DNA of 64,000 bases. It comes from Pseudomonadota bacterium. Its GTDB lineage: Bacteria; Pseudomonadota; Gammaproteobacteria; Steroidobacterales; MnTg04. Shown here one piece after another: positions 49,005-64,000 of this stretch. The notes beneath the pieces were generated by a model. That model was given only the letters and a program-made list of their open reading frames with translations, was not told the DNA's origin and searched no databases. The position numbers and the translations under genes were made by a program. Numbering within the stretch: the stretch's first letter is position 1; every line of letters begins with the position of its first letter. Location: assembly GCA_022560735.1 (NCBI GenBank), contig JADFSO010000007.1, positions 18,980 through 82,979 of the forward strand, given 5' to 3'.

Positions 49005-49817
49005 TTATTCGCCGGGGTCGGGCTCGGCTCCTGGTATCGGTTCTGGCGTATAGACCGGGAAGGTCTTGACGCCGCTGCCGCTCTCGCCGTCGTCTGTGCC
49101 CGGTTCGCTGTACTGGATCGCACTGTCGGGGGCCGGCGCGTATTTTGCCAGTGCCGCCATGAACTCGCGGGCTGGCTGCGGCGGCGTGATGTCGCCATAG
49201 ATGATCTCGCCGGCATCGACGGAGTCGCGATGGTAAAATTTGGCGTTTGCCTTGTCGTCTATGGAGATAACCGAGCCATCCAATGCAATACCGATAAACA
49301 GCCCGCGGCTCCTGGAGTATGAATAAACCTCTGCGTCGAACTTGATATCGGTTGCCGCGCTGCCGGAACGGCCGACCGGTCCCGCAGCCACCGATGCATC
49401 CGCGCCGAGGGTCAGTTTGCCGCCGGTGATCCCGTCCACGCCTTTCTTGTTCTTGAAAACCAGGATCAGGTCGGTCTCGGAAATGCCAATCTGCAATCCC
49501 CAGCTACCGCCGGCCAGCTTGATAAAGCTGGGATTGCTCCAGCTGTTGTCCGCTTTGCGCACGCTGATCACGCCCTTGCCAAAGCGGCCGCCAAAAACCA
49601 GGCCCGCCTTCATGACGCCGGGTATGACGGCAACTGCGTAGGCCTTTGTCAGCAAGGACTCGGGGATGCTCGTCTCCCTGATGCGCATGATTTGATCGAG
49701 GACCACGACCGCCTTGTTAATCCGCTTTTCTTCCTTGCTTTGCGCCTGCGCCAGCAACGGCACCAGAAACAGAACTGCAAGGCCCGCAAGCAGGCTGAAT
49801 TTCCTGGACATAGCCAT
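49005..49817 (-). CDS. lipid-binding SYLF/Ysc84 domain protein, exported
   Basis: Signal peptide after GGAG RBS; KAGLVFGGRFGKGV, GGSWGLQIG, LGADASVAAGPVGR, YSYSRSRGLF; the longer ORF in the track is a spurious extension. Confidence 0.9.
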   Translation of the reverse strand: MAMSRKFSLLAGLAVLFLVPLLAQAQSKEEKRINKAVVVLDQIMRIRETSIPESLLTKAYAVAVIPGVMKAGLVFGGRFGKGVISVRKADNSWSNPSFIKLAGGSWGLQIGISETDLILVFKNKKGVDGITGGKLTLGADASVAAGPVGRSGSAATDIKFDAEVYSYSRSRGLFIGIALDGSVISIDDKANAKFYHRDSVDAGEIIYGDITPPQPAREFMAALAKYAPAPDSAIQYSEPGTDDGESGSGVKTFPVYTPEPIPGAEPDPGE

Positions 49818-49988
49818 CTTTATTTCTCCGCGTTTCCGGGTGTGAACCCAAAACCCGCTCAAGGTTCCCGCCGAGGCGGGTAGCGCCAGCTTACTGCAAT
49901 GGTGGCGTGAATATCCAGCGCCCGCGAGTCCGGCTACACTGCGCAAGTCGCCTGCCGTTCTTGCGCCGGAGATAGCATGGAAGGAGCA

Positions 49989-50966
49989 ATGAATTTTCGC
50001 CAGTTTCTGCTGTTTGCAGGCTGCCTGTTGTGGTCCATCGTCGCCACCGCCGACTGGTATACCAACGAGCAGGCGATTATGGGCACGGTCATTCGCACCG
50101 AGTTGTGGAGCGATGATCCGCTGACGGCTGGCGAAGCGATCAGGCTGGTGAACGAGGAAATGCACCGCATCGACCGGTTGATGAGTACCTACAAGCCGGA
50201 TTCCGAGATTTCGCGGGTCAACCGGGACGCGGCGGAAAAACCAGTCAGGATCAGCGCCGAATTGCTGGATCTCCTTGCCAGGGGAATCGAAATGTCGCGG
50301 CTGAGCGGCGGCGCATTCGACATCACTTATGCCAGCATCGGCCAGCTGTATGATTATCGCGCCGGTGTCCGCCCCGATGAACAACAGATTGCAGCCGCCT
50401 TGCCGGCCATCGATTACCGGTTTGTCGAGCTGGACCTCGATGAATGCACCGTATTCTTTAGCAGGCACGGAGTACGGATCGATCTGGGTGGCATCGCCAA
50501 GGGCTACGCGGTCGAGCGCGGTGTGGGTATCCTGCGCGCGCAGGGTATTGAGCACGGGCTGATCAGCGCCGGCGGCGACAGCCGGATCCTGGGCGATCGG
50601 CGGGGTGCGCCATGGATAGTGGGCGTGCGTGACCCGAGAAACAGCGATCGGGTTATCGCCAGGTTGCCGCTCATCGACGAAGCGATTTCCACGTCCGGGG
50701 ACTACGAGCGATTTTTTGAGGAAGACGGGGTTCGTTATCACCACATTATCAGCCCCGCCACTGGCCACTCGGTCAGCGAAGTGCGCAGCGTCACGATTAT
50801 CGGGCCCGACGCGACGATGACCGATGGTCTTGCCACCAGTGTTTTCGTGATGGGCCTGGAAGACGGCTTGCGACTGATCGATTCGCTGGATGATTTTGAA
50901 GCGGTGATCGTCGACCGGCACGGCGCACTGCACCGGTCCGGCGGGTTTCTGCCGCCGCAACAATAA
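49989..50966 (+). CDS. apbE: FAD:protein FMN transferase
   Basis: IMGT, GAFDIT, IDLGGIAKGYAV, AGGD, ISTSGDYERFF, RYHHII.P.TG, DGLAT. Confidence 0.95.
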   Translation: MNFRQFLLFAGCLLWSIVATADWYTNEQAIMGTVIRTELWSDDPLTAGEAIRLVNEEMHRIDRLMSTYKPDSEISRVNRDAAEKPVRISAELLDLLARGIEMSRLSGGAFDITYASIGQLYDYRAGVRPDEQQIAAALPAIDYRFVELDLDECTVFFSRHGVRIDLGGIAKGYAVERGVGILRAQGIEHGLISAGGDSRILGDRRGAPWIVGVRDPRNSDRVIARLPLIDEAISTSGDYERFFEEDGVRYHHIISPATGHSVSEVRSVTIIGPDATMTDGLATSVFVMGLEDGLRLIDSLDDFEAVIVDRHGALHRSGGFLPPQQ

Positions 50967-51407
50967 GCAGCGGTCGCGGCTCCGGGGCCGGCCTCGCCCG
51001 CTTATGTATCAAAGTCAGTGATTGCCAGTCGCGAGCCGTCCCCTGTCTTCGATTGGCGACAAGAAAAGTCCTTTAAAAACAGCATCTTGAAATAAACCGG
51101 GAAATAACTGTTTGCACTTGGCGACGGTTGTTGACGCTATTTTCCATAAAAACCTGCACGGCTCGCGTCCGGGTTTCGCGTTTGTCCTGTAAGCCGATGA
51201 TTTCATGGACGATTTCTCAAACTGGCACGAAAGTTGCCATTTAATGGTGTGTGGCGTTTCTTTATCAGTCACCAGGCCTTCGACAAGGAATCGTCCGGCC
51301 GGGTGATTCAGATCAAGCGCCGCCTGCTGCGAGCCCTCTTAGGTCGAGGGTATTAAAGCGTGCGGTGTTCGATTGACATAAGACGAAAGCCTGTGCACGG
51401 TGCACGG

Positions 51408-51491
51408 TACTGATAAAGGCAAACTCGCCGAAAGGTGAGGACGCAAAGCAACCGGTCTAAGGGATATCCTAGGACGGCGGGGGCTGCCAGT
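51408..51491 (+). ncRNA. cyclic di-GMP-I (GEMM-I) riboswitch
   Basis: GGCAAA-CTCGCC-GAAA-GGTGAG-GACGCAAAGC..CCGGTCTAAG..GACGGCGGGGGCTGCC; P1 ACTG/CAGT; TTGACA at 51373. Confidence 0.92.
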
Positions 51492-51641
51492 TTTTTTGCA
51501 GTTGTTCGACCTTCTCCGTGGAAACCCCGACCGGTCTGTACCTGGCCTGAGTTCACGACCCATGCCAATGGGAGTGGTGAGCCTTGCGCCAGGTTCTTCG
51601 CTTTGTTGCCTCCTGGTTACATTTACGGGACGGGTACGGAT

Positions 51642-54509
51642 ATGGACAAGGTAAACAGGAATAAATCAGCCGGCGTTTTTCTGCTTGCGGCGGTCGCGTT
51701 ATTGCTCGGCAGCTGTGGCGATAGCGCCAGGGAAGAGGTCGTCATCGAAGGCGCCCTGGCGATCGTTTTCGTGCAACGCGGTGTCAACGCGGTTGGCAAC
51801 CCGACCGATGGGATTATTTTCCAGGCCGGCGGTGACCTGATGAGTCTGGATCTTTCCTCGCCGAGCGCGACCATGAGCAATCTGACCGAGACCTACACGG
51901 CAGGCGCCGGCGATGTTTCGGACCCGGAAGTTTCTTTCGATGGGCAACGCGTCCTGTTTGCGATGCGCGGGCCCAATGACCCGACCTGGAACATTTTCGA
52001 ATACGAAATGGCCACCGCCGCGTTGACCCGTATCGTTGCGGACGATCTGCTCGCCAATGCCGGCGATGATGTCGACCCGGCTTACCTGCCCGATGGCCGT
52101 ATCGTGTTCAGTTCGAATCGCCAGGAAAAATCGCGCCAGATCCTGAGTGCAGAAAATACCGAGCAATTTTCTTTCCTCGACGAGTATGAACGCGAGCGCT
52201 CGATCGTCCTGCATGTCATGAATGGCGATGGCAGCGATATTCACCAGATTTCATTTAACCAGAGCCACGACCGCAACCCGACGGTCCTGACCACCGGCGA
52301 AATCATGTTCTCGCGCTGGGATCATGTGGGTAATCGCAACCATTTCCCGATTTTCTTCACCAACCCGGATGGCACCAACATTTTTGTCCAGTACGGCGCG
52401 TTCAGCCCCGGCAACAGCATGCTGCATCCGCGTGAAATGCCTGACGGGCGGGTCATGAGTTCGTTGATGCCATTGTCCGGGACCTTCGAAGGGGGCGCCA
52501 TAGTCGCCGTCGATATCCGTAATTTTTCCGAGTTCAACGAACCCACGGCGGGGGCGCCCGCTGGCGCAGTCGGCCAGGTCGAGGTAACCCCATTGCCGAT
52601 CGAATTTGGCCGGGACGTATCCGAAAACGGACGTTTTACGACGCCGTTTCCGCTTTGGGACGGCACCAACCGCGCGCTGGTTAGCTGGTCGCCGCTGCGC
52701 CCCGAAACGGAGATCGATCCATTTTCCGGCGTGGAAGTCGAGGTTGAAGGCGATCCGCTTTATGGCATTTACATGCTGGACATGGACACCAATTCGATGC
52801 GTCCGATCGCCTTGCCGCAGGATGGCATGGCCTATACGGATGCGATCCCTTTGCAGGCGCGACCCGTGCCAAACACGATTAGCGACAAACCGCTGGATGC
52901 CGCCCTGGCGGCCCAGGGCATGGGCATTATCAACGTCAAGAGCGTTTATGACACCGATGGCCAGGATTTGATGGGTGCGAACATGCTGGTTGGCGGTGAA
53001 AATATCCCGATGATAGCGGCGCCGCCCGGGGATTCACGTTCCATGGTCGCGGACGTGGCGACGATCAAGGATCCGCTGCTGACCACTGCCGCCGGCCGGG
53101 TCGGCCGTTTTATCCGGATTACCCGCGCGGTTTCCACGCCTCGCGGCATATCGATGAACGCCATCGGTGAGAGCGACATGGAGATGCAACGCATCCTTGG
53201 CTATGGGGTTGAAGAGCCCGATGGCTCGTTCCGTTTCAAAGTACCGGCTGACATTGCCCTCGGTGTTGCGGTCGTCGATGCCAATGGCCGCGCGATACAG
53301 ACCCATACCAACTGGCTGCAGGTTCGCCCCGGCGAAACCCGCACCTGTAACGGGTGTCACTCGCCGCGACGCGGCGGCGCGCTCAATGCCGTGCCGATCG
53401 CCGGCGACCATCCCAATACACGGTTGGCAGCGCAATCCGGCGAATCGATGGCCGAAACCCGTACCCGCCTGGATCCGCAGGTCATGGACCTGACCGCCGA
53501 TATGGTTTTCCAGGATGTCTGGACGGACCCGGCGATCCGGGCGCCGGATCCGGACCTGGTGCTTGACTATGCCGGGCTCACGACGGCGGCCCCGGTGAAT
53601 GGGCTGATCAATTATCCGGATCATATTGCCCCGTTGTGGACCAGGGACCGCGGCGCCGATACTTGTATCGCATGTCACAACAGCAACCTGCTCAACGACC
53701 CGGTATCGGTCGGGCTGGATCTGCGCAGCCTGTCGGCGGGCAATGGCCGTTTGTTGTCCTACGAGGAACTGATGATTGGCGATCCGGTCATCGATGCCGC
53801 TACCGGACTACCGATTCTGCGGGTCAGAGACGGCGAAATTGAAGTCGTGCGCCAGGCGCCGCTGGTAGCGACCGGATCCTCACGGCAAAGTTCGCGGACC
53901 AGTCACCTGGTTGAAAAAATTTATGAGCAGGAACTTCGCGCCGGCAAGAACCTGGTCGCGGCCACCGTTGACCACAGCGGCATGATGAACGCATCCGAAC
54001 GGCGCCTGATGGCCGAGTGGATAGATGTTGGCGCACAGTATTACAACAATCCGTTCGATGACGCGAATGGAGACGGCTTTAACAGTCTCAGCGAGGTTCG
54101 TGGCGGAGTGCGCGGTCTTAGCGAAAGCGCATTCAACGCACAGGTCCATCCGATCCTGATGACACGTTGTGCCGCTTGCCATCAGCCGTTTACCGGCAAT
54201 GGCACGCCATCCAACCCGCAAAATCCTGGTTTCAGCCCGAATCGCTTCGTGCTGACCGGGAGCCAGGAAGGCGATTTCAACATTACCGTCAGCATGGTCG
54301 AAAGCGTTTGCCTGCCGGAACAAAGCAGCTTGCTCAAACGACCGATCAGCGACGAGCTCGCCAATCCGCCGCACCCGCGCATCGACGATCCAAATGTTGC
54401 CGACGATCCCAATGACCCGCTGGCCGACGATGTCACCGTGTTGACGATCGCCGACGCCGATTATCAGACTATTTTCAACTGGGTTGCGGACGGCGTTTGC
54501 ATACCATGA
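51642..54509 (+). CDS. hydrazine synthase alpha (HzsA)-related lipoprotein: beta-propeller plus three c-type heme motifs
   Basis: Lipobox LLGSC; PD40-like DPEVSFDG, DPAYLPDGRIVFSSNR, FSRWDH; EPDGSFRFKVPAD..VRPGETRTCNGCH; CIACH; CAACH. Confidence 0.8.
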   Translation: MDKVNRNKSAGVFLLAAVALLLGSCGDSAREEVVIEGALAIVFVQRGVNAVGNPTDGIIFQAGGDLMSLDLSSPSATMSNLTETYTAGAGDVSDPEVSFDGQRVLFAMRGPNDPTWNIFEYEMATAALTRIVADDLLANAGDDVDPAYLPDGRIVFSSNRQEKSRQILSAENTEQFSFLDEYERERSIVLHVMNGDGSDIHQISFNQSHDRNPTVLTTGEIMFSRWDHVGNRNHFPIFFTNPDGTNIFVQYGAFSPGNSMLHPREMPDGRVMSSLMPLSGTFEGGAIVAVDIRNFSEFNEPTAGAPAGAVGQVEVTPLPIEFGRDVSENGRFTTPFPLWDGTNRALVSWSPLRPETEIDPFSGVEVEVEGDPLYGIYMLDMDTNSMRPIALPQDGMAYTDAIPLQARPVPNTISDKPLDAALAAQGMGIINVKSVYDTDGQDLMGANMLVGGENIPMIAAPPGDSRSMVADVATIKDPLLTTAAGRVGRFIRITRAVSTPRGISMNAIGESDMEMQRILGYGVEEPDGSFRFKVPADIALGVAVVDANGRAIQTHTNWLQVRPGETRTCNGCHSPRRGGALNAVPIAGDHPNTRLAAQSGESMAETRTRLDPQVMDLTADMVFQDVWTDPAIRAPDPDLVLDYAGLTTAAPVNGLINYPDHIAPLWTRDRGADTCIACHNSNLLNDPVSVGLDLRSLSAGNGRLLSYEELMIGDPVIDAATGLPILRVRDGEIEVVRQAPLVATGSSRQSSRTSHLVEKIYEQELRAGKNLVAATVDHSGMMNASERRLMAEWIDVGAQYYNNPFDDANGDGFNSLSEVRGGVRGLSESAFNAQVHPILMTRCAACHQPFTGNGTPSNPQNPGFSPNRFVLTGSQEGDFNITVSMVESVCLPEQSSLLKRPISDELANPPHPRIDDPNVADDPNDPLADDVTVLTIADADYQTIFNWVADGVCIP

Positions 54510-54542
54510 ACTGGCGTGGGAAGAGGTATTGGAGATTGATGG

Positions 54543-55061
54543 GTGATGGCTGAATCCAGGTATTTGATCGCAGTGTGCCTGCTCGCACTGGTCGCCGCTT
54601 GTAACGAGGTGGAGAACGAGCAGCAGGCGCAGACCGCGCAATCGCTGTGCCTTGCCGATTTCGAGGCCTGTGTGAATCCGATTTTCGATGGAACACTGAA
54701 TGGCAGCTTGGGGCAAGTTACCTGCTCGGCCAGTGGTTGCCACAACCAGGCCGCCGGTTCGGGTGGCGCCTTCAAGATTTTTGCCAATGCACAGCCAGGA
54801 TCGACCGAGATCCTGGCGAATTTTTTTGCGGCGAAGTCTTTTGCCAACCTGGATAACCCGGCACAGAGCAAACTTCTGCTCGAGCCGCTGCAGGGCGTGT
54901 CTTCGATCAGCGGCACGCATACCGGTGGCGATATTTTTCCGGACACCACCGACCAGTGCTACCAGGCAATTTTTAGCTGGATATCGACCCGCGTTGATGA
55001 CCGCAGCTCGTCGAGTTGCGGTGTCTGCACGGCCGCTGCACTGGCCAGCTGCGGTTTCTGA
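54543..55061 (+). CDS. Cys-rich lipoprotein with atypical CX4CH motif
   Basis: Lipobox VAAC; FEACVNPIF...CSASGCH...SKLLLEPL...HTGG..F...YQAIFSWI, resembling the last domain of the upstream protein. Confidence 0.7.
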   Translation: MMAESRYLIAVCLLALVAACNEVENEQQAQTAQSLCLADFEACVNPIFDGTLNGSLGQVTCSASGCHNQAAGSGGAFKIFANAQPGSTEILANFFAAKSFANLDNPAQSKLLLEPLQGVSSISGTHTGGDIFPDTTDQCYQAIFSWISTRVDDRSSSSCGVCTAAALASCGF

Positions 55062-55172
55062 ACCGGGGCTGTGGTTAGCGCTTATGTAAAAAACTGTGAG
55101 GCGGGTAACGGAACGAGCCGGGCATTAATGAGGAAATGGAGCTTGAAATCGTTACGGACACTGGAAGACCTG

Positions 55173-55904
55173 ATGAATGTGCTTCGGCTCGCCTGCCTGC
55201 TGCTGCTGATTCCGCTGGTGATGGGCGCTGCCGCCTATCAGCGGGTCCAGGTGCAGGATCCATTTATGGATCTGCATACGGGGCCAGGACGTGGTTTCCC
55301 GGCCGTCCAGGTCGTCGAGCGCGGTGAATGGGTGGAGATAATCAAGCGCAAGACCGACTGGTTCAAGGTCAGGAGCGAACAAGACAAGGAAGGTTGGGTG
55401 CACAGAAGTCAGATGGAAAAAACGCTGACAGAAGCGGGCGTAAAGAAAAACTTTCGCGACGTCCTGATGGACGACTATCTGAGCCGTCGTCTCGAGATAG
55501 GTTTTGCGGCTGGCCGTTTTGACGGTGACCCATCGCTGACGGTGCGCGCCAGTTACCGGTTTAACGATTTCATCATCGGCGAATTTAGCCTGAGCCAGGT
55601 CTCGGGCGATTTTTCCAGCTCCAGGATAGTCGACCTCAATGTGCAGCTCGCACCATACAGCGACCACCGCTTCTCTCCGTATTTCAACCTTGGCTTCGGC
55701 CACTTCCGGAATGAGCCAAGGGCGACCCTGGTAAACGCGGTGGATACCAGTGCGACGACGGCGGTAGTCGGTGTCGGTCTGCGTATATACCTGACCCGGC
55801 GATTCATCGTCAGGGTCGATTTCAAAGACTACATCGTGATGATAGATGCGGACCGGAACGAGGAATTTCAGCAATGGATAACGGGCTTTTCATTTTTTTT
55901 CTGA
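55173..55904 (+). CDS. SH3b domain plus outer membrane beta-barrel protein
   Basis: Signal peptide; LHTGPGRGFP..KRKTDWFKVR..EGWV; SPYFNLGFG; C-terminal FSFFF. Confidence 0.82.
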   Translation: MNVLRLACLLLLIPLVMGAAAYQRVQVQDPFMDLHTGPGRGFPAVQVVERGEWVEIIKRKTDWFKVRSEQDKEGWVHRSQMEKTLTEAGVKKNFRDVLMDDYLSRRLEIGFAAGRFDGDPSLTVRASYRFNDFIIGEFSLSQVSGDFSSSRIVDLNVQLAPYSDHRFSPYFNLGFGHFRNEPRATLVNAVDTSATTAVVGVGLRIYLTRRFIVRVDFKDYIVMIDADRNEEFQQWITGFSFFF

Positions 55905-55913
55905 GGCGAGGCA

Positions 55914-56594
55914 ATGTTTAAGCAAGGATTTCGCAAAATAGCCGCACTGTTATTTCTGACCAGCTTCCTTGCCGCCGGTTGCAGCCTGCTTCCGGGGCGG
56001 GGAAATGATCAGGAACCGCAGGAATTACCGCTCGAGGAAGCGCCGGGCCAGGTGATCGCTCCGGCGGTGGAGCGGCGCGACATCAGCGTGCCAAAAATCG
56101 ACACCGAAAACTGGGAGATCGGCCCATACTTTGGTGTGCTCAGTGTCGATGATTTTGGTTCGCGGGCGATTTATGGAATACGCGCGGCTTATCACGTCAG
56201 CGAGGATTTTTTCCTCGAAGGCGCCTATGCGAGATCGACGGTCAGGGATACGAATTTCAGGAACATCGGCCTGCCGATATTTCCGAGCGAGGAAGAAGAC
56301 CTGACTTTTTATAGTTTTTCCCTCGGCTATAACTTCCTGCCCGGCGAGGTGTTCGTCGGCACCAAGTGGGCGATGACCAGCAGCATGTATTTCATTTTCG
56401 GGGTCGGCAATACCGAGTTTATCGGGGAAGACGATCTGACTTATAGCTTCGGCTTCGGGCTGCGCGTGTTGCCGCGGGATTACCTGGCCTTGCGGATCGA
56501 AGCCAAGGACAACATTTTCGAATCCGATTTACTGGGCACAAACGAATACAAACACAACCTGGAATTCAATATTGGATTCAGTGTGTTCTTTTAA
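55914..56594 (+). CDS. outer membrane beta-barrel protein with lipobox
   Basis: LAAGC; IDTENWEIGPYFG, YHVSEDFFLE, GYNFLPGE, C-terminal FSVFF. Confidence 0.82.
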   Translation: MFKQGFRKIAALLFLTSFLAAGCSLLPGRGNDQEPQELPLEEAPGQVIAPAVERRDISVPKIDTENWEIGPYFGVLSVDDFGSRAIYGIRAAYHVSEDFFLEGAYARSTVRDTNFRNIGLPIFPSEEEDLTFYSFSLGYNFLPGEVFVGTKWAMTSSMYFIFGVGNTEFIGEDDLTYSFGFGLRVLPRDYLALRIEAKDNIFESDLLGTNEYKHNLEFNIGFSVFF

Positions 56595-56606
56595 AGGAGT
56601 GGCTCG

Positions 56607-57101
56607 ATGCGTGGAATAAAAATATTGCTGATCTGCCTGCTGCTGCCGCTGACCAACGCCGTTGGCGTGACCGGTCTGGTGGGGCAGCCGGCGCCTGATT
56701 TTGCGTTAAAGAGCCTCAGCGGCGAAAACCTCCGGCTCAGCGAGTTCCGGGGTGAGGTTGTCATGATCAATTTCTGGGCAACCTGGTGCGGTCCCTGCCG
56801 GCAGGAGATGCCTTTGCTCGATGAGCTGCACCGGCGCTACGAGAAAGTGGGTTTCCGTCTGCTCGGCGTCAACATCGACGACGACCGGCGCAGTGCGGCC
56901 AAGATGGTCCGGGTGCTTGGCCTGAGTTTTCCGGTGCTGCTGGATGAGCGCAAGCACGTCAGCCGCCTGTATGACGTCGATGCGATGCCGGCGACGCTGT
57001 TGATCGACCGGACGGGTATCGTCCGCTATATCCACCATGGATACAGATCCGGATATGAGCAAAGTTATGTCGATGAAATACGTGAGTTGCTGAAAGAGTA
57101 A
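56607..57101 (+). CDS. TlpA/ResA-family thiol-disulfide oxidoreductase
   Basis: Signal peptide; APDFAL, INFWATWCGPCRQEMP. Confidence 0.93.
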   Translation: MRGIKILLICLLLPLTNAVGVTGLVGQPAPDFALKSLSGENLRLSEFRGEVVMINFWATWCGPCRQEMPLLDELHRRYEKVGFRLLGVNIDDDRRSAAKMVRVLGLSFPVLLDERKHVSRLYDVDAMPATLLIDRTGIVRYIHHGYRSGYEQSYVDEIRELLKE

Positions 57102-57108
57102 GGCGGGC

Positions 57109-57324
57109 ATGAAGAAACTAACTTTATTGCTGATTGTCCTACTGCTTGGCGCCTGCGCCAGAGAGCCATGGGTGCGGCCGTATGAACGTGAGGCCCTGGC
57201 CGATCCGATGATGTCGTTTAGCCAGGATCCACTGGCCGACAGCACCAGAACGCACGTGTTTGAAGTTCGCGAAGGCGCTCGTGGCGCCGAACAATCACAC
57301 GGGGGCGGTTGTGGCTGCAATTAG
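57109..57324 (+). CDS. DUF4266-like small lipoprotein
   Basis: Lipobox LGAC; VRPYER..LADP.M, C-terminal GGGCGCN. Confidence 0.88.
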   Translation: MKKLTLLLIVLLLGACAREPWVRPYEREALADPMMSFSQDPLADSTRTHVFEVREGARGAEQSHGGGCGCN

Positions 57325-58465
57325 CGAAAGACTGCTTTTCGAGCTCATTACGAGCGGCGCAAATGCGCTCGCTCTGCTGCGTGGTGGACCGACGATACTG
57401 GCTATGCTGTTTGCCGTCGTTATCGCCGGACCTGCCGTTGCAGCCACTTTGCCGGAGGAACGGGCCGACGCGCTCTACCACTATTACAGCGGTGGCGGCA
57501 TCGACGTGCAGGGGCCTGCGCTGCTGGTTCGCAAGAATTTCGCAGAGAAATATTCCGTCACCGCCAGTTATTACCAGGACAGCATCAGCGGCGCCTCGAT
57601 CGACGTCGTGACCAACGCCAGCGCCTACAGCGAAACACGCAACCAGTTCGGGCTGGGGTTCGATTATCTCTATGGCGATACCCTGATGAGTATTTCCTAC
57701 ACCCAAAGCGATGAGAACGACTACGAAGCCAGGACGCTGGATGTCGGGCTCAGCCATGATTTCTTCGGTGGAATGAGTACGCTCGCGCTGGGTTTCAGCC
57801 GCGGCGACGATACGGTCATGCGTGTGGACACCTCGTTCGAAGACACTGTCGACCGTTTCCAGTACCGGCTGGGCTGGACCCAGATTCTGTCTCCCACCTT
57901 CGTTGCCGCGCTCAGCTACGAAGGAATTTCGGAGGAAGGTTTCCTGAACAATCCCTATCGCTCGGCGCGGGTGCTGGGAGCATCGGTCCAGGAACGTTAC
58001 CCACGGACCAGGACCAGCAACGCGCTGGGCATTCAGGCCAACAAATACTGGGGCGACCGCAGTTTTGTCACGCGAGTGAAATACCGTTTTTATGACGATA
58101 CCTGGGGTATTGGCGCGCACAACATCGAATTCATGTTTTCGCGCCGTCTCAGTGAAAAAACCGAGTTTGGCGTGGGGGGTCGTTTTTACACCCAGACTGC
58201 CGCCAATTTTTACAGCGATAACTTTGCCCAGGAATTTCGCTATATGGCGCGCGACAAGGAACTGAGTGATTTCACCAGTGCCTCGATTGGCGGGCGGATT
58301 AGTTATGAGTTGTTCCGTGACCGGGGACGGTTGGCAAAAGGCAAGGTCACGCTGATTTTCGACCGTATTCATTTTGACTATGACAATTTCAGCGACATTC
58401 GAAGCGGCGAGCTCTATGAGTTCAACGCGAATGTCATCCAGATATTTTTTTCTGCCTGGTATTGA
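57311..58465 (+). CDS. DUF3570-like outer membrane beta-barrel (start uncertain)
   Basis: LPEERADALYHYYSGGG, DSISGAS, LNNPYRS, ERYPRTR, YDDTWGI, ARDKELS, C-terminal SAWY; overlaps the end of the DUF4266-like gene. Confidence 0.85.
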   Translation: MAAISERLLFELITSGANALALLRGGPTILAMLFAVVIAGPAVAATLPEERADALYHYYSGGGIDVQGPALLVRKNFAEKYSVTASYYQDSISGASIDVVTNASAYSETRNQFGLGFDYLYGDTLMSISYTQSDENDYEARTLDVGLSHDFFGGMSTLALGFSRGDDTVMRVDTSFEDTVDRFQYRLGWTQILSPTFVAALSYEGISEEGFLNNPYRSARVLGASVQERYPRTRTSNALGIQANKYWGDRSFVTRVKYRFYDDTWGIGAHNIEFMFSRRLSEKTEFGVGGRFYTQTAANFYSDNFAQEFRYMARDKELSDFTSASIGGRISYELFRDRGRLAKGKVTLIFDRIHFDYDNFSDIRSGELYEFNANVIQIFFSAWY

Positions 58466-59037
58466 TTATGAACAGTAGAAATTCTGCCAATCATTTCTTG
58501 CTGGCCCTGGTGTTGATGCTGGGCATGCCCGTAACAAGCCCGGCACAGGAACAACCGGCCGCAGTCATCGACGGGTCCGATAACCGTGAGTTTCGCAGTC
58601 TCGACGACGACATACAGGATCTCAAGCAGGAGGTGCTGGCGCTAAATCGCGATCTGTTCATCCTCGAGGAGGAACTGCTTTTTCCGGCGAATACCCAGGT
58701 CGCGGTATTCGTATCCATGGATGTCGGCACTTTTTTCAGCCTCGACTCCGTACAGATCAAGTTGGACGACAAGGAAGTCTCCAACTACCTGTATACCGAA
58801 CGTGAAGCAAAGGCGCTGCTAAACGGCGGCGTTCACCGTATTTACCTGGGTAATCTGCGCACCGGCAAGCATGAACTGGTCGCCTTTTTCACCGGCAAAG
58901 GAACGCACGATCGGGATTATCGCCGGGGGGCCAGCTTGCAATTCGAAAAAGGCGTGGGGGCGAAGTTTGTCGAACTCAAAATCAGCGACCGGCAAAGCAA
59001 ACTGCAGCCGGAGTTCGTGATCGAGGAATGGGAGTAG
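58462..59037 (+). CDS. exported coiled-coil/beta protein
   Basis: Signal peptide; LKQEVLALNRDLFILEEELLFP, YLYTERE..AL..GGV.RIYLGNL..GKHEL; no HTH visible. Confidence 0.75.
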   Translation: MIMNSRNSANHFLLALVLMLGMPVTSPAQEQPAAVIDGSDNREFRSLDDDIQDLKQEVLALNRDLFILEEELLFPANTQVAVFVSMDVGTFFSLDSVQIKLDDKEVSNYLYTEREAKALLNGGVHRIYLGNLRTGKHELVAFFTGKGTHDRDYRRGASLQFEKGVGAKFVELKISDRQSKLQPEFVIEEWE

Positions 59038-60903
59038 ATGAAGGGACGCATTCACCAGTTGTTGATCGCATTTACGCTGTGCCTTGCTGGCGCGGCGCAG
59101 TTGCATGCGGATGAGGATTCCCTGGAGATTGGCCAGGTTCGGAATCTGCCGTTTGGCGAGGTGCTGTTTTATTTCTACCAGGATGATTATTTCCCGGCCC
59201 TGACCCGGCTGATGGCCGCACAACATCGGGGCGAGCTGGACGATCACGCCGATGACGCGGAGTTGCTGCGGGGCGGCATGATGCTGTCCTATGGTCTGCA
59301 TCGTGATGCCGGCGAGATTTTTAATCGCCTGCTGGATCGCAAGGCGCCCCGGCCGGTCAAGGACAGGGCCTGGTATTTTCTTGCCAGGATCTGGTTCCAG
59401 CGCGGTTATTACGAACGCGCCGAGACGGCGCTGGCTCGCATACTCGCGCCCCTGCCGGAGCACATGCAGGAGCGTCACATGATGCTCAGGGCCCAGGTCA
59501 TGATGGCGCGTGGTGACTTCAATGCCGCCTCCCGCCTGCTGGATGATTGGCGCAGCGATGGCGATCTGGCGAACTTCGCACGCTACAACCTGGGCGTGGC
59601 CCTGGTCCGCCAGGGCAGGCTGAGCGAGGCCACGAGCCAGCTTGAACGGGTCGGGCGCATACGCACCACCGATCTGGAAATGCTGGCGCTGAGAGATCGC
59701 GCCAATCTCGCATTGGGTTTCGCGCTGATCCAGGACCAGCAAGGCCATGCCGCACGCAAAGTGCTTGGCAGGGTTCGCCTGTCCGGGCCGTTTTCCAGCA
59801 AGGCCTTGCTGGGCGCGGGCTGGGCCGACAGCCTGGCCGAGGACTACCAGCGGGCGCTGGTTCCCTGGGGCGCGCTGCAAGATCATCATCTGCTCGACTC
59901 GGCGGTGCTGGAATCCTTGCTGGCCGTGCCCTATGCGCTGGGAAAATTGCAGGCGAACCGGCACGCCGCCGATGCCTATTTGAGTGCAATCCAGGCCTAT
60001 GCGCGGGAGACAGACCAACTGGACCAGGCAATTGCGCGCATGCGTTCGGGCGAGTATCTCAGCCAGCTGCTGCAGGATGACGCGGTAAACGATCCGGGCT
60101 GGAGCTGGCGGCTAAAGACCATTCCGGACAGCAACGAAAGTCGTTACCTGTATTTACTCGTTGCCAGCCATCGATTTCAGGAGGGGCTGAGAAATTATCG
60201 CGATTTACGTTTCCTGCAATACAACCTGGGGCAGTGGTTGCAGAGCCTGGCCGCATTTGACGACATGCTGGACACGCGTGAGCTCGCTTATGCGCAACGC
60301 GAACCCGCGGTGGTTCGGGCGATCGATGAAGTCGATCTCGATTCACTGGCCAGGCGGCAACTGGAGTTTGCGGCCAGGATTTCCGAAATCGACGAAAACA
60401 GCGACTACCTGGCGCTGGCCAGCGCCGCTGAGCAAAGCCAAAACCATCGACTGCGATTGGTCGAAAAGAAACTCGCTCTGCTGCCGTATGGCTCGGAGAC
60501 CAGCGATCTGCGGAAAAAACAACGTCTGTTGGCCGGGGTGCTGAACTGGCGGCTGGAAGCGAGATTCAAAGAGCGGTTGTGGCGGCAAAAGAAAACCCTG
60601 AACGATCTTGACATTGCGATGCTGGACGCGCGGCGACGCAGCGCGAAGGTTTCGCGGGCGCGTACGGAAATGCCCGCCAGATTCGTCCGTTACCGGCAAA
60701 CCATCGATGGCTTGCGACCGCGGGTGCGGGCGATGATCGAGCAGGCCGCAATTATTGCGGCTACCCAGCAGGCGTTTTTGCAGTCGCTGGCGATCGCCGA
60801 GCTGGAAGCGCAGAAGCAACGCCTTTACACCTATCGCGTGCAGGCACGATTTGCCCTGGCGACCATTTATGATCGTGCGACGACGCAGGGGTTTTCGCCA
60901 TGA
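59038..60903 (+). CDS. exported TPR protein with coiled-coil C-terminus
   Basis: Signal peptide; GEVLFYFYQ..YF.ALT.L, ARYNLGVAL, DRANLALG, ALLGAGW, ARFALATIYD. Confidence 0.82.
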   Translation: MKGRIHQLLIAFTLCLAGAAQLHADEDSLEIGQVRNLPFGEVLFYFYQDDYFPALTRLMAAQHRGELDDHADDAELLRGGMMLSYGLHRDAGEIFNRLLDRKAPRPVKDRAWYFLARIWFQRGYYERAETALARILAPLPEHMQERHMMLRAQVMMARGDFNAASRLLDDWRSDGDLANFARYNLGVALVRQGRLSEATSQLERVGRIRTTDLEMLALRDRANLALGFALIQDQQGHAARKVLGRVRLSGPFSSKALLGAGWADSLAEDYQRALVPWGALQDHHLLDSAVLESLLAVPYALGKLQANRHAADAYLSAIQAYARETDQLDQAIARMRSGEYLSQLLQDDAVNDPGWSWRLKTIPDSNESRYLYLLVASHRFQEGLRNYRDLRFLQYNLGQWLQSLAAFDDMLDTRELAYAQREPAVVRAIDEVDLDSLARRQLEFAARISEIDENSDYLALASAAEQSQNHRLRLVEKKLALLPYGSETSDLRKKQRLLAGVLNWRLEARFKERLWRQKKTLNDLDIAMLDARRRSAKVSRARTEMPARFVRYRQTIDGLRPRVRAMIEQAAIIAATQQAFLQSLAIAELEAQKQRLYTYRVQARFALATIYDRATTQGFSP

Positions 60904-63695
60904 ATGCCGTTGCCTGGACAGTGATCGCCGGTTTGTCGCTGTGGCCGTTTGGCAGCAAGAACGACGATGCGGATGTCGAGACCATCGACAGCCTGGATCG
61001 GCAAAAACCGGTGCTGGTTGAGAAAAACAACCCCGATGCCAGCGGGCAGAACGCGATCCGGAACTATCGCGAATTTCTGCGGCTTTATCCGGATGATCCC
61101 GATTTGCGTGCCGAAGCCATGCGCAGGCTGGCCGATCTGCAGCTCGAAGCCGGTGAGGAGCGGATGATCGAAGGTGACCTGGCGATGTTGCAGGGCATCG
61201 AGTACCGCGATGCGGTGCATCTTTACGAGTCCCTGTTAAAACAGAATCCAACCGCCCCGAATAACGATCGTATCCTCTACCAGCTTGCGCGGGCATACGA
61301 AAACACCAACCAGACGGAGAAGGCGCTGGTCGCGCTCGACCAGTTGGTCGGTCAGTATCCCGATTCGCCGATGGCGATCGAGGCGCAATTCCGCCGCGGC
61401 GAAATACTTTTTGTCGCCAAGCGGTATTACCCGGCACAACAGGCCTATGCCGGGGTGGTCGCCGGTGACGATGAGTCCCGCTACTACCAACAGTCCCTGT
61501 ACAAACTTGGCTGGTCGATGTTCAAGCAGGGTGAGTACGAAGACGGCCTGGATGCGTTTTTCGAGTTGCTCGATCGTCGCCTGATCGATGATCAGGGGGA
61601 ACTGATATCGACCGATTTCATGACCCGCCCGGAGCGCGAGCTGATAGACGACGCGTTTCGAGTCAGCAGCATCAGTATTTCCTATCTCGAAGGACCCGCG
61701 ACGCTGGATCGCAGAATGGCCGGCGATACGCCGCCGGTTTATGTCTACCGTCTTTACCAGGGGCTTGGCGACCTGTACCTGGAAAAGGAACGTTACCAGG
61801 ACGCGGCCGAAAGCTATCGTTCCTTTGCGCTAAACCAGCCGCTGCACGAATTGGCGCCGTTGATGCGGACGCGGGTGATCGATACCTACAAGGCGGGCCA
61901 TTTCCCATCCCTGGTGTTGCGGGCCAAACAGGAATTCGTAGACGAATATGATGTCGACAGCGCCTACTGGACCCGACACGACTGGCGGTCCCGAATCGAA
62001 GTGACCGGTCTTTTGCAGGAGCATCTCGATGATCTCGCAACCCATTACCACGCGGTTTCACAGGATGCCGAAGACCCGGAATCTTATGCGCTCGCCGCGG
62101 ATTATTATCGACGCCTGATCCGTGCTTTCCCGGATGATCCCGCCGCCGCCGAAGCCAACTTCCTGCTGGCCGAAATTCTGTTCGATGCCGGTGAATACGA
62201 AGATTCGGCGATCGAGTACGAGCGCACCGCGTATTCCTATCCTTTGTCACCGCATGCGGCGGAAGCCGCTTACGCCGCGGTACTGGCATACCAGGCCCAT
62301 GAGCCGTCTCTGGCAGGTCAGGCTCGCGCAGATTGGCATTTGATGGGGATCGATTCCGCATTGCGCTTTGCCGGGCGCTTCCCGGAACACTTGGAAAGTC
62401 TGCCCGTGCAGACACAGGCAGCCGAAGACTTGTACGAACTCGGCGAATTGCAGGGCGCATTGGCGGCCGCACAGCCGGTACTGGGCGCACAGAACGCGCC
62501 CGATGAGCTGAAGCGCGTCGCCTGGACCGTCGATGGCCACAGCAATTTCGATCTGAACAATTATCCGGCGGCGGAAGTCGCCTATCTCAAGGTCCGCGAG
62601 CTGACGCCAGCCGATAATCCAGGCCTGCCCGATCTCGAGGAGCGGATCGCTTCGTCTGTTTACAAGCAGGGTGAAATTGAGCGCGACAACGGCGATCTGG
62701 AAATGGCCGTCATGCACTTTGCCAGGGTCGGCGAAATGGCGCCCGGATCGAAGATCGTGGTGACCGCCGATTACGATGCGGCCGCGGCTTTACTCGCGAT
62801 GGAAGACTGGTATCGGGCGGCACCGGCACTGGAAGGATTTCGCCGCAAGTATCCCGATCACGAGTCGATCGCCGATATCGGCCGCAGCCTGGCGCAAAGC
62901 TATGAAAAATCGGGCCAGGAGCTGGCGGCCGCGACCGAGTACCGGCGTATCGCGGACGACGAAACGGAGCCCGCCGAGGTCAGGCGCGAGGCGCTGTGGC
63001 ATACCGCCGAGTTGCTGGAGAGCCAGGCGGCGGTCGATGATGCGGCTGAAGTCTGGCAGGAATTTATCAAGCGTCACCCATCGCCGATCGACGATTCGAT
63101 GCAACTGCGTGAAAAACTGGTTGCCTATCACGCCGGCCGGGCCGACGAAAAAGAACGGATCTCGTGGTTGCGGGCAATCGTTGCCGCCGATGCCGCGGCT
63201 GGTGAATCGCGCAGTGACTACAGCCGAACAGTCGCGGCAAAGGCGTCGCTCGACCTGGCACGGCCGAAATTGATTTCATACGTCTCGATCAAGCTCAAAA
63301 TTCCGTTAAAGGACAGCCTGGCGATGAAAAAGAACTTCATGGAGCAGGCATTGGCCGCGTATGCTGCCGCCGCCGATTACGGGATCGCCGAAGTAACAAC
63401 GGAGGCAACCTTTCAAATTGCGGAAATTTATCACCAGCTCAGCCGGGATCTGATGGATTCACAAAGACCGAAAGAGCTGAGCGCGGAGGAGATCGAACAG
63501 TACGACATCTTGCTCGAGGAACAGGCATACCCGTTCGAAGAACAGGCAATCGAAATTCACCAGGCGAACACGGAGAGGGCAGCCAGCGGGTTTTACAACG
63601 AATGGGTACGGGCCAGTTTCGAGGAATTGGCGAAACTCTCGCCGGCACGATATGCGAAGGCGGAAATCAGTGAAAACCATATCAACACAATGTAG
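60900..63695 (+). CDS. large TPR repeat protein
   Basis: Many TPR motifs (LYQLARAYE, FRRGEILF, LYKLGWS); C-terminal QYDILLEEQAYPFEEQAIEIH..N; ATGA overlap. Confidence 0.85.
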   Translation: MNAVAWTVIAGLSLWPFGSKNDDADVETIDSLDRQKPVLVEKNNPDASGQNAIRNYREFLRLYPDDPDLRAEAMRRLADLQLEAGEERMIEGDLAMLQGIEYRDAVHLYESLLKQNPTAPNNDRILYQLARAYENTNQTEKALVALDQLVGQYPDSPMAIEAQFRRGEILFVAKRYYPAQQAYAGVVAGDDESRYYQQSLYKLGWSMFKQGEYEDGLDAFFELLDRRLIDDQGELISTDFMTRPERELIDDAFRVSSISISYLEGPATLDRRMAGDTPPVYVYRLYQGLGDLYLEKERYQDAAESYRSFALNQPLHELAPLMRTRVIDTYKAGHFPSLVLRAKQEFVDEYDVDSAYWTRHDWRSRIEVTGLLQEHLDDLATHYHAVSQDAEDPESYALAADYYRRLIRAFPDDPAAAEANFLLAEILFDAGEYEDSAIEYERTAYSYPLSPHAAEAAYAAVLAYQAHEPSLAGQARADWHLMGIDSALRFAGRFPEHLESLPVQTQAAEDLYELGELQGALAAAQPVLGAQNAPDELKRVAWTVDGHSNFDLNNYPAAEVAYLKVRELTPADNPGLPDLEERIASSVYKQGEIERDNGDLEMAVMHFARVGEMAPGSKIVVTADYDAAAALLAMEDWYRAAPALEGFRRKYPDHESIADIGRSLAQSYEKSGQELAAATEYRRIADDETEPAEVRREALWHTAELLESQAAVDDAAEVWQEFIKRHPSPIDDSMQLREKLVAYHAGRADEKERISWLRAIVAADAAAGESRSDYSRTVAAKASLDLARPKLISYVSIKLKIPLKDSLAMKKNFMEQALAAYAAAADYGIAEVTTEATFQIAEIYHQLSRDLMDSQRPKELSAEEIEQYDILLEEQAYPFEEQAIEIHQANTERAASGFYNEWVRASFEELAKLSPARYAKAEISENHINTM

Positions 63696-64000
63696 GGGCT
63701 TGCTGCTGGCTCTGCTGGTGTCGATCATGCTCAGCGCCTGTTCGACGCTGCCGGTCGGCATGTTTTCGAGTTCCGCGAACCGCGAAAATCCCGCAGCGTA
63801 CGAAGAAGCGCTGGCTTTGATGGATAGCGGGCATCTCGAGGCCGCCGAAACGACGTTGCTGCGCCTGACAAAACGCTACCGCCGGTCCGCCGGGCCGTGG
63901 ATCAATCTATCGATTATTTATGCGCGAACCCAGCGCCATGAACAGGCCGAGGCGGCATTGAACCGCGCCCTGGAGCTGGACCCGCGCAGCGCGGTTGCCT
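63670..64000 (+). CDS. TPR lipoprotein (3' truncated by window; not in ORF track)
   Basis: GTG 63670; lipobox LSAC; YEEALALM, GPWINLSIIY...AEAALNRALELDP. Confidence 0.78.
   Translation, partial: MKTISTQCRGLLLALLVSIMLSACSTLPVGMFSSSANRENPAAYEEALALMDSGHLEAAETTLLRLTKRYRRSAGPWINLSIIYARTQRHEQAEAALNRALELDPRSAVA

Follow-up and report, generated by a model that had tools for sequence, protein, structure and literature searches.

Two clustered envelope systems described in bacteria are the closest known counterparts of the locus reported here. Méheust et al. (2021, PMC8238504) described gene clusters for ApbE, a DUF3570 protein, a thioredoxin-like protein and a DUF4266 protein, 227 of them with DsbD and 316 without. 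In that study the DUF3570 protein of Chlorobium luteolum was flavinylated at two [ST]GA[ST] sites, the CxC end of DUF4266 was noted and a relay involving DsbD, the thioredoxin-like protein and DUF4266 was considered; the function of the system, according to the paper, "remains uncertain". Luciano et al. (2011, PMC3169522) defined the Agl-Glt core complex, composed of gltC, gltD, gltE, gltG, aglR, aglQ and aglS together with one extra gene. Its genes lie together in Gammaproteobacteria, one betaproteobacterium, Geobacter (Deltaproteobacteria) and Fibrobacter, and the paper presents it as a "complex of unknown function" that is ancestral to the gliding (Agl-Glt) and spore-coat (Agl-Nfs) machines of Myxococcus. 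In Myxococcus, according to two further papers (bioRxiv 10.1101/2020.07.22.216333; PMC11761067), AglRQS-GltG act through GltD/E/C on GltA and GltB, small barrels whose extended N-termini bind GltC, and this platform controls the surface exposure of the lipoprotein adhesin CglB. Here we analyse a 64,000-nucleotide (nt) stretch of gammaproteobacterial DNA (hereafter the window; G000:C47:18980-82979, on a contig that extends 16.8 kb beyond it), in which genes of both kinds follow each other in one operon behind a riboswitch for cyclic di-guanosine monophosphate (c-di-GMP).

From 51409 to ~67966, a co-oriented and tightly packed string of 17 genes lies behind a c-di-GMP-I aptamer, with ApbE just upstream. 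We divide the string into two modules. Module A (outer-membrane redox) holds the HzsA-like protein (H), a Cx4CH lipoprotein, the SH3 barrel (S), the OMP_myx_plus barrel (O), TlpA (T), DUF4266 (d) and DUF3570 (D). Module B holds p191, three tetratricopeptide-repeat (TPR) proteins, p138, a TolQ/ExbB-type stator, two ExbD/TolR proteins, a bitopic TonB-like protein and a PDZ protein. New here is that two systems without an assigned function are coupled in a single operon, that this coupling is conserved, and that new constant partners come with it: p191, the TlpA that heads the core, H-S-O as a triad, and the riboswitch. From the conserved linkage we put the probability that modules A and B are functionally coupled at about 0.55. 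The features are given below, with lengths in amino acids (aa); numbers preceded by L001 belong to the locus that continues past the window.

49977..50966, + strand: ApbE, FAD:protein FMN transferase (flavin adenine dinucleotide, flavin mononucleotide), Pfam PF02424, E 1.5e-83; exported or lipoprotein-like N-terminus
51409..51492, + strand: c-di-GMP-I (GEMM-I) aptamer, RF03167 65.2 bits, RF01051 73.0 bits; inside the 675-nt leader of the HzsA-like gene
51642..54509, + strand: HzsA-like lipoprotein, HZS_alpha E 1.9e-18; PD40
54543..55061, + strand: Cx4CH lipoprotein, 172 aa; no Pfam or NCBIfam match
55173..55904, + strand: S, exported SH3 domain plus small outer-membrane barrel, SH3_3 E 1.4e-9, OMP_b-brl E 6e-7, TIGR04565 E 8.7e-9
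55914..56594, + strand: O, lipoprotein with small beta-barrel, TIGR04565 OMP_myx_plus E 1e-38, 132.8 bits against a cut-off of 60
56607..57101, + strand: TlpA/ResA-type thiol:disulfide oxidoreductase with WCGPC, AhpC-TSA E 3e-32, Redoxin E 2e-29
57109..57324, + strand: DUF4266 small lipoprotein, PF14086 E 9.9e-21; lipobox; C-terminus GCGCN (CxC)
~57281..58465, + strand: DUF3570, PF12094 E 8e-35; site SISGASIDVVTNAS; start according to the 394-aa protein-database form
58462..59037, + strand: p191, exported 191-aa protein; no Pfam or NCBIfam match
59038..60903, + strand: exported TPR protein, 621 aa, GltC position, TPR_19 E 2e-11
60900..63695, + strand: TPR protein, 931 aa, GltD position; TPR_6, TPR_16 and YfiO matches, YbgF-type repeats E 8e-32
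63652..64272 (only the 5' part in the window; L001 2632-3252), + strand: TPR lipoprotein, 206 aa, GltE position; TPR families, lipobox
L001 3249-3665 (beyond the window), + strand: p138, exported 138-aa protein
L001 3712-4362, + strand: MotA/ExbB with three transmembrane (TM) segments, MotA_ExbB E 1.1e-30
L001 4359-4856, + strand: ExbD/TolR no. 1, ExbD E 8.9e-16; one TM segment
L001 4871-5380, + strand: ExbD/TolR no. 2, ExbD E 1.8e-15; one TM segment
L001 5325-6305, + strand: GltG-like TonB-type protein, 326 aa, NF033768 61.9 bits against a cut-off of 40
L001 6314-6946, + strand: PDZ/GspC-like protein

Intergenic distances across the string range from -44 to +111 nt. Most junctions, those past 64000 included, are overlaps or gaps of at most 60 nt, and the start of p191 overlaps the stop of DUF3570 or lies 2 nt from it. 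Export signals were assigned by reading the N-termini by eye. An initial annotation of the window had named ApbE, the riboswitch and the co-oriented genes, and searches with Pfam, NCBIfam, Rfam and motifs found every item in its place; the ApbE start that it gave, 49989, is an internal ATG of a gene that begins at 49977. Matches to DUF3570, DUF4266 and HZS_alpha, for which it had proposed HMM searches, were found with the E values listed above. It had further predicted MotA/TolQ, ExbD/TolR and TonB-like genes past position 64000; a MotA/ExbB gene, two ExbD genes and a TonB-like gene are indeed found directly downstream on the same strand.

The linkage of the two modules was followed at three levels of relatedness. 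At the order level, 41 genomes were searched with the HzsA-like protein and a p191 profile. The former was found in 29/41 and the latter in 32/41; 27 genomes had both, five p191 only, seven neither and two the HzsA-like protein only (one of these genomes is 76% complete and the other match is a weak fragment). Both markers are therefore present in 27 of the 34 genomes that bear either. One unpublished genome (G022) is counted in these tallies and in that of the ten riboswitch-headed HzsA-like genes given below. Twenty HzsA-centred loci were then taken, for spread, from the 28 relatives with a match. H, S and O are contiguous in all 20, and the series H-S-O-T-d-D is complete in 17, two being without TlpA and one cut at a contig end. 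In nine of the 20 the string runs on the same strand into (ApbE)-p191-TPR-TPR-TPR-p138-MotA-ExbD-ExbD-GltG-like, and in several fused operons (L006-L009, L018, L104) ApbE sits between DUF3570 and p191. Both modules share a contig in G040, where they are divergent and 7 kb apart, and in G031 and G034, at 19-24 kb; in the remaining genomes, apart from one discussed below, they lie on different contigs of draft assemblies.

Scanning named public genomes with the p191 alignment gave at least 474 relatives, of which the best 80 loci were examined. These are mostly from metagenome-assembled genomes (MAGs) of Steroidobacteraceae or Gammaproteobacteria, the closest being "Bacterium MnTg04" (88% identity). 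TlpA is encoded just upstream of p191 in 78/80, and the core is complete in all 65 loci with at least 9 kb of downstream sequence. Where at least 9 kb was available upstream, an HzsA-like gene lies within 10 kb in 57/62 loci, in 56 of them divergently and across a gap of ~6 kb. At the class level, with one genome per family, the p191 profile was found in 33/151 genomes. From the 32 genomes other than our own, 20 loci were fetched; module A genes are adjacent in 12 of them, and two (L102, L107) show exactly the gene order of the window. Across a large set of Gammaproteobacteria the A-B linkage is thus strong and withstands rearrangement, and it is not obligatory. As a separate observation, the ~6-kb gap of three inspected Steroidobacteraceae loci (L048 3615-8958, L056 and L024) holds three conserved genes, encoding a protein of ~400 aa with weak DUF1585/PSD2 matches, a lipoprotein of ~830 aa (Laminin_G_3) and a Tat-signal-like protein of ~535 aa without a family. 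In this family the system may include these proteins too.

Judged from predicted families and gene content, module B matches the composition of the Agl-Glt core complex of Gammaproteobacteria. Both have one TolQ/ExbB-like and two TolR/ExbD-like proteins (the AglR/AglQ/AglS set), a bitopic TonB-like protein and three exported TPR proteins, all clustered, as well as at least one additional gene that is absent from Myxococcales. The TPR proteins of 621, 931 and 206 aa follow each other in the order expected for GltC, GltD and GltE. By its position and the published composition the first is probably GltC-like; in NCBIfam, the models for GltC and GltD gave nothing at E 0.01 or better. The GltE model recognises the 206-aa protein with E 4e-12, below its cut-off and more weakly than PilW does. 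The GltG-like protein has a short cytoplasmic N-terminus, a TM segment at 47-65, proline-rich and glycine-rich linkers and a TonB-like C-terminal domain, which passes the NCBIfam AgmX/PglI domain model NF033768. Over the full length GltG ranks first (E 2.3e-10), before the generic TonB_C (E 2.8e-7) and GltJ; in the control genomes the GltG model matched only in Bacteroides and Corynebacterium, below the cut-off, and Myxococcus was not among the controls named for any match. In Myxococcus the cytoplasmic part of GltG is far longer and includes an FHA domain, whereas the ~46 cytoplasmic residues of the GltG-like protein gave no Pfam or NCBIfam match. Homologues of GltF, H, I, J, K, AglZ and CglB were not seen, no search aimed at them having been made. 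Unlike the described core, the present one is fused or linked to genes for the HzsA-like protein, two small barrels, TlpA, DUF4266, DUF3570 and ApbE; TlpA and p191 come before it, and in this order of bacteria a c-di-GMP riboswitch leads it. Eight genes of the MotA/ExbB family are present in the genome, so the stator of the operon is an additional system and not the sole Tol/TonB set. The most conserved non-motor protein of the set is p191 (54-93% identity within the order), which is always the first or second gene of the Glt-like unit and has at least 8000 database clusters, named hypothetical or AraC.

In module A, the HzsA-like lipoprotein (lipobox LLLGSC) consists of a beta-propeller, a hydrazine-synthase-alpha middle domain and three CxxCH motifs at residues 569, 675 and 843. 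It resembles HzsA of anaerobic ammonium-oxidizing (anammox) bacteria (PDB 5C2V) in its beta-propeller, its middle domain (residues 513-580 aligned to HzsA 500-568) and its C-terminal heme domain; in the comparison with 5c2v_A (E 1.2e-9) only the middle domain, with the first CxxCH, is significant. It differs in being a lipoprotein with an extra third heme domain, and in a gene context that points to the outer membrane and not to the anammoxosome. Relatives keep CNGCH and a second CxxCH, two such motifs being typical (50/71), and the third belongs to a C-terminal extension found in this clade. The score of 62.4 bits against the HzsA equivalog NF052339 is far from its cut-off of 800, and Pfam and NCBIfam scans of the neighbouring proteins found no domain of the hydrazine synthase beta or gamma subunits. 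The 172-aa lipoprotein carries CSASGCH (Cx4CH) at residues 61-67 and a C-terminal cysteine cluster; the motif is kept in seven of eight homologues, the eighth having CX6CH, and the protein is found only in the clade of operons to which the window belongs. We considered whether it duplicates the heme domain at the C-terminus of the HzsA-like protein and dropped this idea, the best local match (E 0.078) being not significant. S and O are paralogous (hhalign probability 93.7%, E 2e-7) and both have aromatic C-termini, S ending in FSFFF. In O, the otherwise variable N-terminal linker contains a motif conserved in the alignment, V-I-x-P-x-V-E-R-R...I-D-T-E-N-F-E.

The flavin and thiol part of module A corresponds to the system of Méheust et al.: [ST]GA[ST], a C-terminal CxC, a thioredoxin fold and ApbE are found in one cluster, and all four families are present. 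The best NCBIfam match of TlpA is ResA (E 1.2e-36), ahead of TlpA (E 4.7e-22), both below their cut-offs. The GCGCN end of DUF4266 is present in 21/21 homologues. DUF3570 has the site D-S-I-S-G-A-S (SGAS), followed by TNAS, and an aromatic C-terminus; a double site D-x-[IV]-[ST]-[GS]-A-S-[IV]-D-V-x-[ST]-x-A-S is recognised in 22/24 aligned sequences. It is probably an outer-membrane barrel. PDB sequence and profile searches with p191, DUF3570 and barrel O gave only chance-level matches to antibodies or unrelated proteins (E 0.098 or worse). In the ESM Atlas p191 and DUF3570 each matched only their own family, without structure models; in one DUF3570 cluster 34% of the members carry Porin_4, no more than a lead. 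In contrast to the clusters of Méheust et al. with DsbD, the single DsbD copy of the genome is on another contig. The thioredoxin-fold protein matches AhpC-TSA, Redoxin and Thioredoxin_8 and not PF13899 as in the paper (PMC8238504), and the HzsA-like cytochrome, OMP_myx_plus barrels, TPR proteins and motor are not mentioned in the portion of that paper available to us. In relatives, ApbE occupies either the place that it has here or that between DUF3570 and p191. Since it lies upstream of the riboswitch in the window, it is probably transcribed separately.

The aptamer (Rfam clan CL00126) matches RF01051 with 73.0 bits against a gathering score of 35, over model positions 1-87, a full-length covariance-model match, and RF03167 with 65.2 bits against 59 (E 3.7e-13). 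The match is far beyond chance. In the Vc2 aptamer of Vibrio cholerae the ligand is contacted by G20, A47 and C92; G20 and A47 are 27 nt apart, a spacing shared by Vc1 (PMC4744006). Here position 10 is G and position 37 is A, also 27 nt apart, so that the likeness to Vc2 and Vc1 includes the equivalents of G20 and A47 as well as the full-length match. The A at the A47-equivalent lies within GACGCAAAG and is found in all six leaders compared, whereas the RF03167 consensus has G there (...GACGCGAAG...). The "GGC" in the name of RF03167 presumably refers to this G in place of A. The label c-di-GMP-I-GGC is not supported for the aptamer, given the A at this position and a score barely above gathering, and labels flip between genomes of one genus (RF01051 in L002, RF03167 in L003). 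From the G10/A37 spacing, the A in all six leaders and the higher RF01051 score, we read it as a canonical class-I aptamer.

The aptamer is kept in the leaders of close relatives. A hairpin followed by U7 lies directly 3' of it in the window and in G001 and is not seen in G006 or G025; the compared leaders share no terminator or other platform element, and the six have no T-run in common. The leader fold has a z-score of -1.7, and a promoter scan gave no sigma-70-like site in the leader. In at least ten genomes (G000-G006, G011, G022, G025; fused or unresolved layout) the riboswitch is directly ahead of the HzsA-like gene, and in at least eight (G007, G009, G020, G021, G024, G030, G031, G038) it is directly ahead of TlpA-p191 or p191. 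In the latter eight the p191/Glt-like unit is apart from the HzsA-like gene, on other contigs or, in G021 and G038, by an insert within the co-oriented string. These counts are lower bounds from genome-wide matches in the 41 relatives, with cmscan of 20 order-level loci as an independent check. The fused operons of two other families (L006, L007, L009, L018) and the 14 class-level loci scanned gave no riboswitch. It is a lineage-specific regulator of this order that tracks the transcription unit holding the Glt-like core. In a literature search, the kind of gene downstream was not found among those reported for this riboswitch class.

Other aptamers of the same class were seen in these genomes. 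G000 has seven RF01051 matches including that of the operon; four other strong ones (59-79 bits) head pilMNOP, an M23 peptidase gene, a 486-aa gene of unknown function followed by a VWA lipoprotein gene, and a globin lipoprotein gene. Of two weak ones (38 and 35 bits), one heads a cyclopropane-fatty-acid synthase gene and the other precedes a 172-aa open reading frame. The aptamer ahead of pilM-pilN-pilO-pilP (78.5 bits; G000:C20:45952-49128, L122) is ~320 nt from the genes, so that assembly of type IV pili appears to be riboswitch-controlled in G000. Long copies of 113-114 nt, up to ~20 per genome, often lie a few hundred bases from contig ends (G000:C1:271-385; also G001, G006, G035), suggesting that assemblies break at a repeated element or gene family; the copy at C1:271-385 heads the gene of a globin-domain lipoprotein. 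In one genus an aptamer is ~1 kb from the HzsA-like gene on the opposite strand (L011 1555-1640 (-); G015:C156:12889-12974), so it is the divergent neighbour that is controlled. In G038 (L008 9413-9632) a cobalamin riboswitch and ~2 kb of inserted genes lie between ApbE and the c-di-GMP riboswitch heading TlpA-p191.

The operon stretch is nearly complete in marine-sediment metagenomes of several studies, and four RNA-Seq runs from two studies hold it in part (24-61% of sampled words). Contigs of these RNA libraries, at least 99% identical, bridge seven junctions: HzsA/Cx4CH, S/O, O/TlpA, TlpA/DUF4266/DUF3570, DUF3570/p191 (58253-58748), p191/TPR621 and TPR621/TPR931. As RNA libraries can contain DNA and one transcript does not follow from a bridging contig, these contigs are only compatible with co-transcription. 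Contigs of the four runs do not cover 51313-51783, which comprises the riboswitch and the first gene's 5' end and where missing cover is no finding, and depths are given per contig and cannot rank genes. Past the PDZ gene and on the same strand, an Asp/Arg beta-hydroxylase (LpxO/OlsC-like)-TPR fusion is encoded (L001 7007-8131, window numbering 68027-69151; also in L022), possibly an accessory of the operon that modifies lipids; the gene after it has the opposite orientation. No terminator-like site was found on the + strand after the PDZ or hydroxylase genes. Directly upstream of ApbE are a Crp/Fnr-type regulator gene (48245-48991, +) and a gene for an exported Ysc84-domain protein (49005-49820, -).

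If the modules are coupled, the most likely mechanism is, by analogy with Myxococcus, a motor-controlled outer-membrane platform for redox and adhesion; for the detailed steps our confidence is much lower. The proton-driven stator and TonB-like arm would act via the TPR scaffold on the two small barrels, and this would control where the heme lipoprotein is placed or whether it is exposed at the surface. The HzsA-like lipoprotein is the candidate cargo because it is always encoded beside S and O, in analogy with GltA/B and CglB. A thiol-to-flavin relay from DsbD to TlpA, DUF4266 and FMN-bearing DUF3570 would link it to the reducing power of the cell. The outcome could be gated contact, redox or adhesive, with solids or oxidants, and c-di-GMP would set expression of the operon via the leader RNA. 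The porin-cytochrome conduits of the MtrCAB type also have a heme lipoprotein encoded together with outer-membrane barrels. The resemblance is of idea only: the operon has two to three hemes, with neither a periplasmic decaheme partner nor a gene for a 26-strand barrel, and has flavin and thiol carriers instead.

Several observations weigh against a functional coupling of A and B or against parts of this mechanism. The core is absent from the fetched 20 kb in 11 of the 20 HzsA-centred loci, and the modules are 390 kb apart in G014. Six class-level loci with low-scoring p191 carry the core (p-C-G-E-x-M-1-2-g; one without E and one without C) with no module A genes nearby. Five of these genomes were searched, and an HzsA-like gene was found in none (0/5) and DUF3570 in one (1/5). 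In the complete genome G023 (L113, G023:C12) the core is divergent from S-O-TlpA-DUF3570 and no HzsA-like gene was found genome-wide with this query, so barrels and DUF3570 can accompany the core without the heme lipoprotein. DUF3570 modules occur in organisms such as Chlorobium that are absent from the core-bearing taxa of Luciano et al., so module A can presumably work without B. Kinship among the genomes makes the counts overstate independence. A motor tree of MotA, ExbD and ExbD does not separate A-linked from A-less cores. It has 40 rows, among them 16 loci of the Steroidobacteraceae set; L008 and L108, each with a gene missing, were left out, and of the 80 named loci L022, L050, L052, L079 and L083 also entered. 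On it the A-less cores need four changes, at least two of them forced by starred branches, and a single gain of module A is not resolved. A "type 2" grouping by low p191 score was rejected, as it is not a clade on this tree. The canonical SGAS/TGAS is found in just 6 of the 24 aligned DUF3570 sequences, that of the window included, the others having SSAS, TSAS or divergent sites, so flavinylation of DUF3570 may not be general. Finally, the full-length Glt equivalog cut-offs were missed (GltE 45.7 against 225 bits, GltG 39.7 against 650 bits), as would be expected for distant relatives.

These points have to be set against other explanations. A and B could be independent neighbours, or share only a regulator, having been fused by genome compaction or for joint control by c-di-GMP; A would then be a DsbD-fed thiol, flavin and heme electron-transfer system and B a Tol/TonB-like envelope system with an unrelated job. 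Each module does occur without the other and has been published on its own, the riboswitch stays with module B when the two are apart, and a second TlpA heads B where A keeps one (L008, L020), which suggests self-sufficient units. Such independence is possible and, on balance, unlikely. It fits poorly with an adjacency that survives at least three rearrangements across many families (fused; divergent at ~6 kb; co-directional or convergent within 25 kb) and with the co-occurrence in 27/34 genomes. Nor does it account for ApbE between DUF3570 and p191 in several fused operons, or for TlpA and ApbE directly upstream of p191 in L049, L052, L106 and L110, where A is divergent or off the stretch, so that redox genes belong to B.

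The remaining two alternatives give the parts other roles, and both appear improbable to us. The stator could energise TonB-type uptake of a redox-active or metal substrate via DUF3570 and the small barrels, followed by periplasmic processing, e.g. reductive metal assimilation. ExbB/ExbD/TonB-like parts are at hand, the linear motif in the N-terminus of O could be a TonB-box-like handle, and in PMC8238504 iron assimilation is suggested for 25 DUF3570 clusters that hold the VIT1 iron transporter. Against this, Pfam scans of 19 proteins found no TonB-dependent receptor (Plug or TonB_dep_Rec) in the operon, the string encodes no inner-membrane transporter, the TonB-like domain belongs to the GltG/GltJ type, and known uptake systems include neither p191 nor three large TPR proteins. 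Alternatively, the redox genes could serve maturation only, TlpA keeping the CxxCH cysteines of the HzsA-like protein reduced for heme attachment, with DUF4266 and DUF3570 as assembly factors or structural porins. That ResA, a cytochrome c maturation reductase, is the best match of TlpA and that most DUF3570 homologues here are without canonical SGAS would agree with this role. It is hard to reconcile with TlpA heading a Glt-like unit that has no cytochrome gene of its own (78/80 loci), with the invariant CxC end of DUF4266, or with the hundreds of TlpA-DUF4266-DUF3570-ApbE clusters that PMC8238504 describes without reference to cytochromes and with DUF3570 flavinylated in vitro. Functional coupling of A and B remains the reading that we prefer.

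As the initial annotation had supposed, the sub-modules were already in print (Méheust 2021; Luciano 2011). A search that left out most subscription journals found no mention of Glt in the accessible DUF3570/DUF4266 literature, where two of the listed matches concern, by title and abstract, macroalgal genomes, and, among the matches listed, no paper joining Agl-Glt with flavinylation, ApbE, hydrazine synthase, a c-di-GMP riboswitch or multiheme proteins; the matches listed for TIGR04565, OMP_myx_plus, HZS_alpha and PF18582 concerned anammox or general topics. Some of the neighbours may already be listed in Supplementary file 1 of Méheust 2021, which covers the five flanking genes on both sides of every DUF3570 or ApbE, or in Figure S1 and Tables S2-S3 of Luciano 2011, and this bears on novelty. 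The link to Glt was the boldest guess of the initial annotation, and it is supported as far as it is testable: the AgmX/PglI domain is recognised and the gene set fits the core complex, the full-length GltE and GltG models falling short. The expected co-occurrence across genomes was seen for redox and Glt-like genes in several arrangements and is not universal, with A-less cores existing; a riboswitch was found in genomes of this order and not in the 14 class-level loci scanned. The overall interpretation is partly supported.

The linkage names candidate partners of the core, namely the heme lipoprotein as cargo, the two paralogous small barrels as outer-membrane platform and p191 as a candidate core member, and it suggests an energy input for the redox module. 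In this order, control by the c-di-GMP riboswitch ties the system to a signal that also fronts pilMNOP here. Carriers include marine-sediment and soil Gammaproteobacteria, and most named loci are from Steroidobacteraceae MAGs. The genus Steroidobacter has cultured members, so knock-outs and surface-exposure assays look feasible. A further-reaching and rather doubtful proposal is that the ancestral job of the Agl-Glt core was to position, gate or expose, driven by the proton motive force, a thiol-flavin-wired redox lipoprotein of the outer membrane held by GltA/B-like barrels. If this were true, the gliding and spore-coat machines of myxobacteria would descend from an energised surface apparatus for redox and adhesion, and DUF3570 systems would be the first motor-coupled outer-membrane electron conduit. 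The operon offers a testable clue to the role of the widespread Agl-Glt core in non-gliding bacteria, and to that of the DUF3570/DUF4266/thioredoxin flavinylation system.

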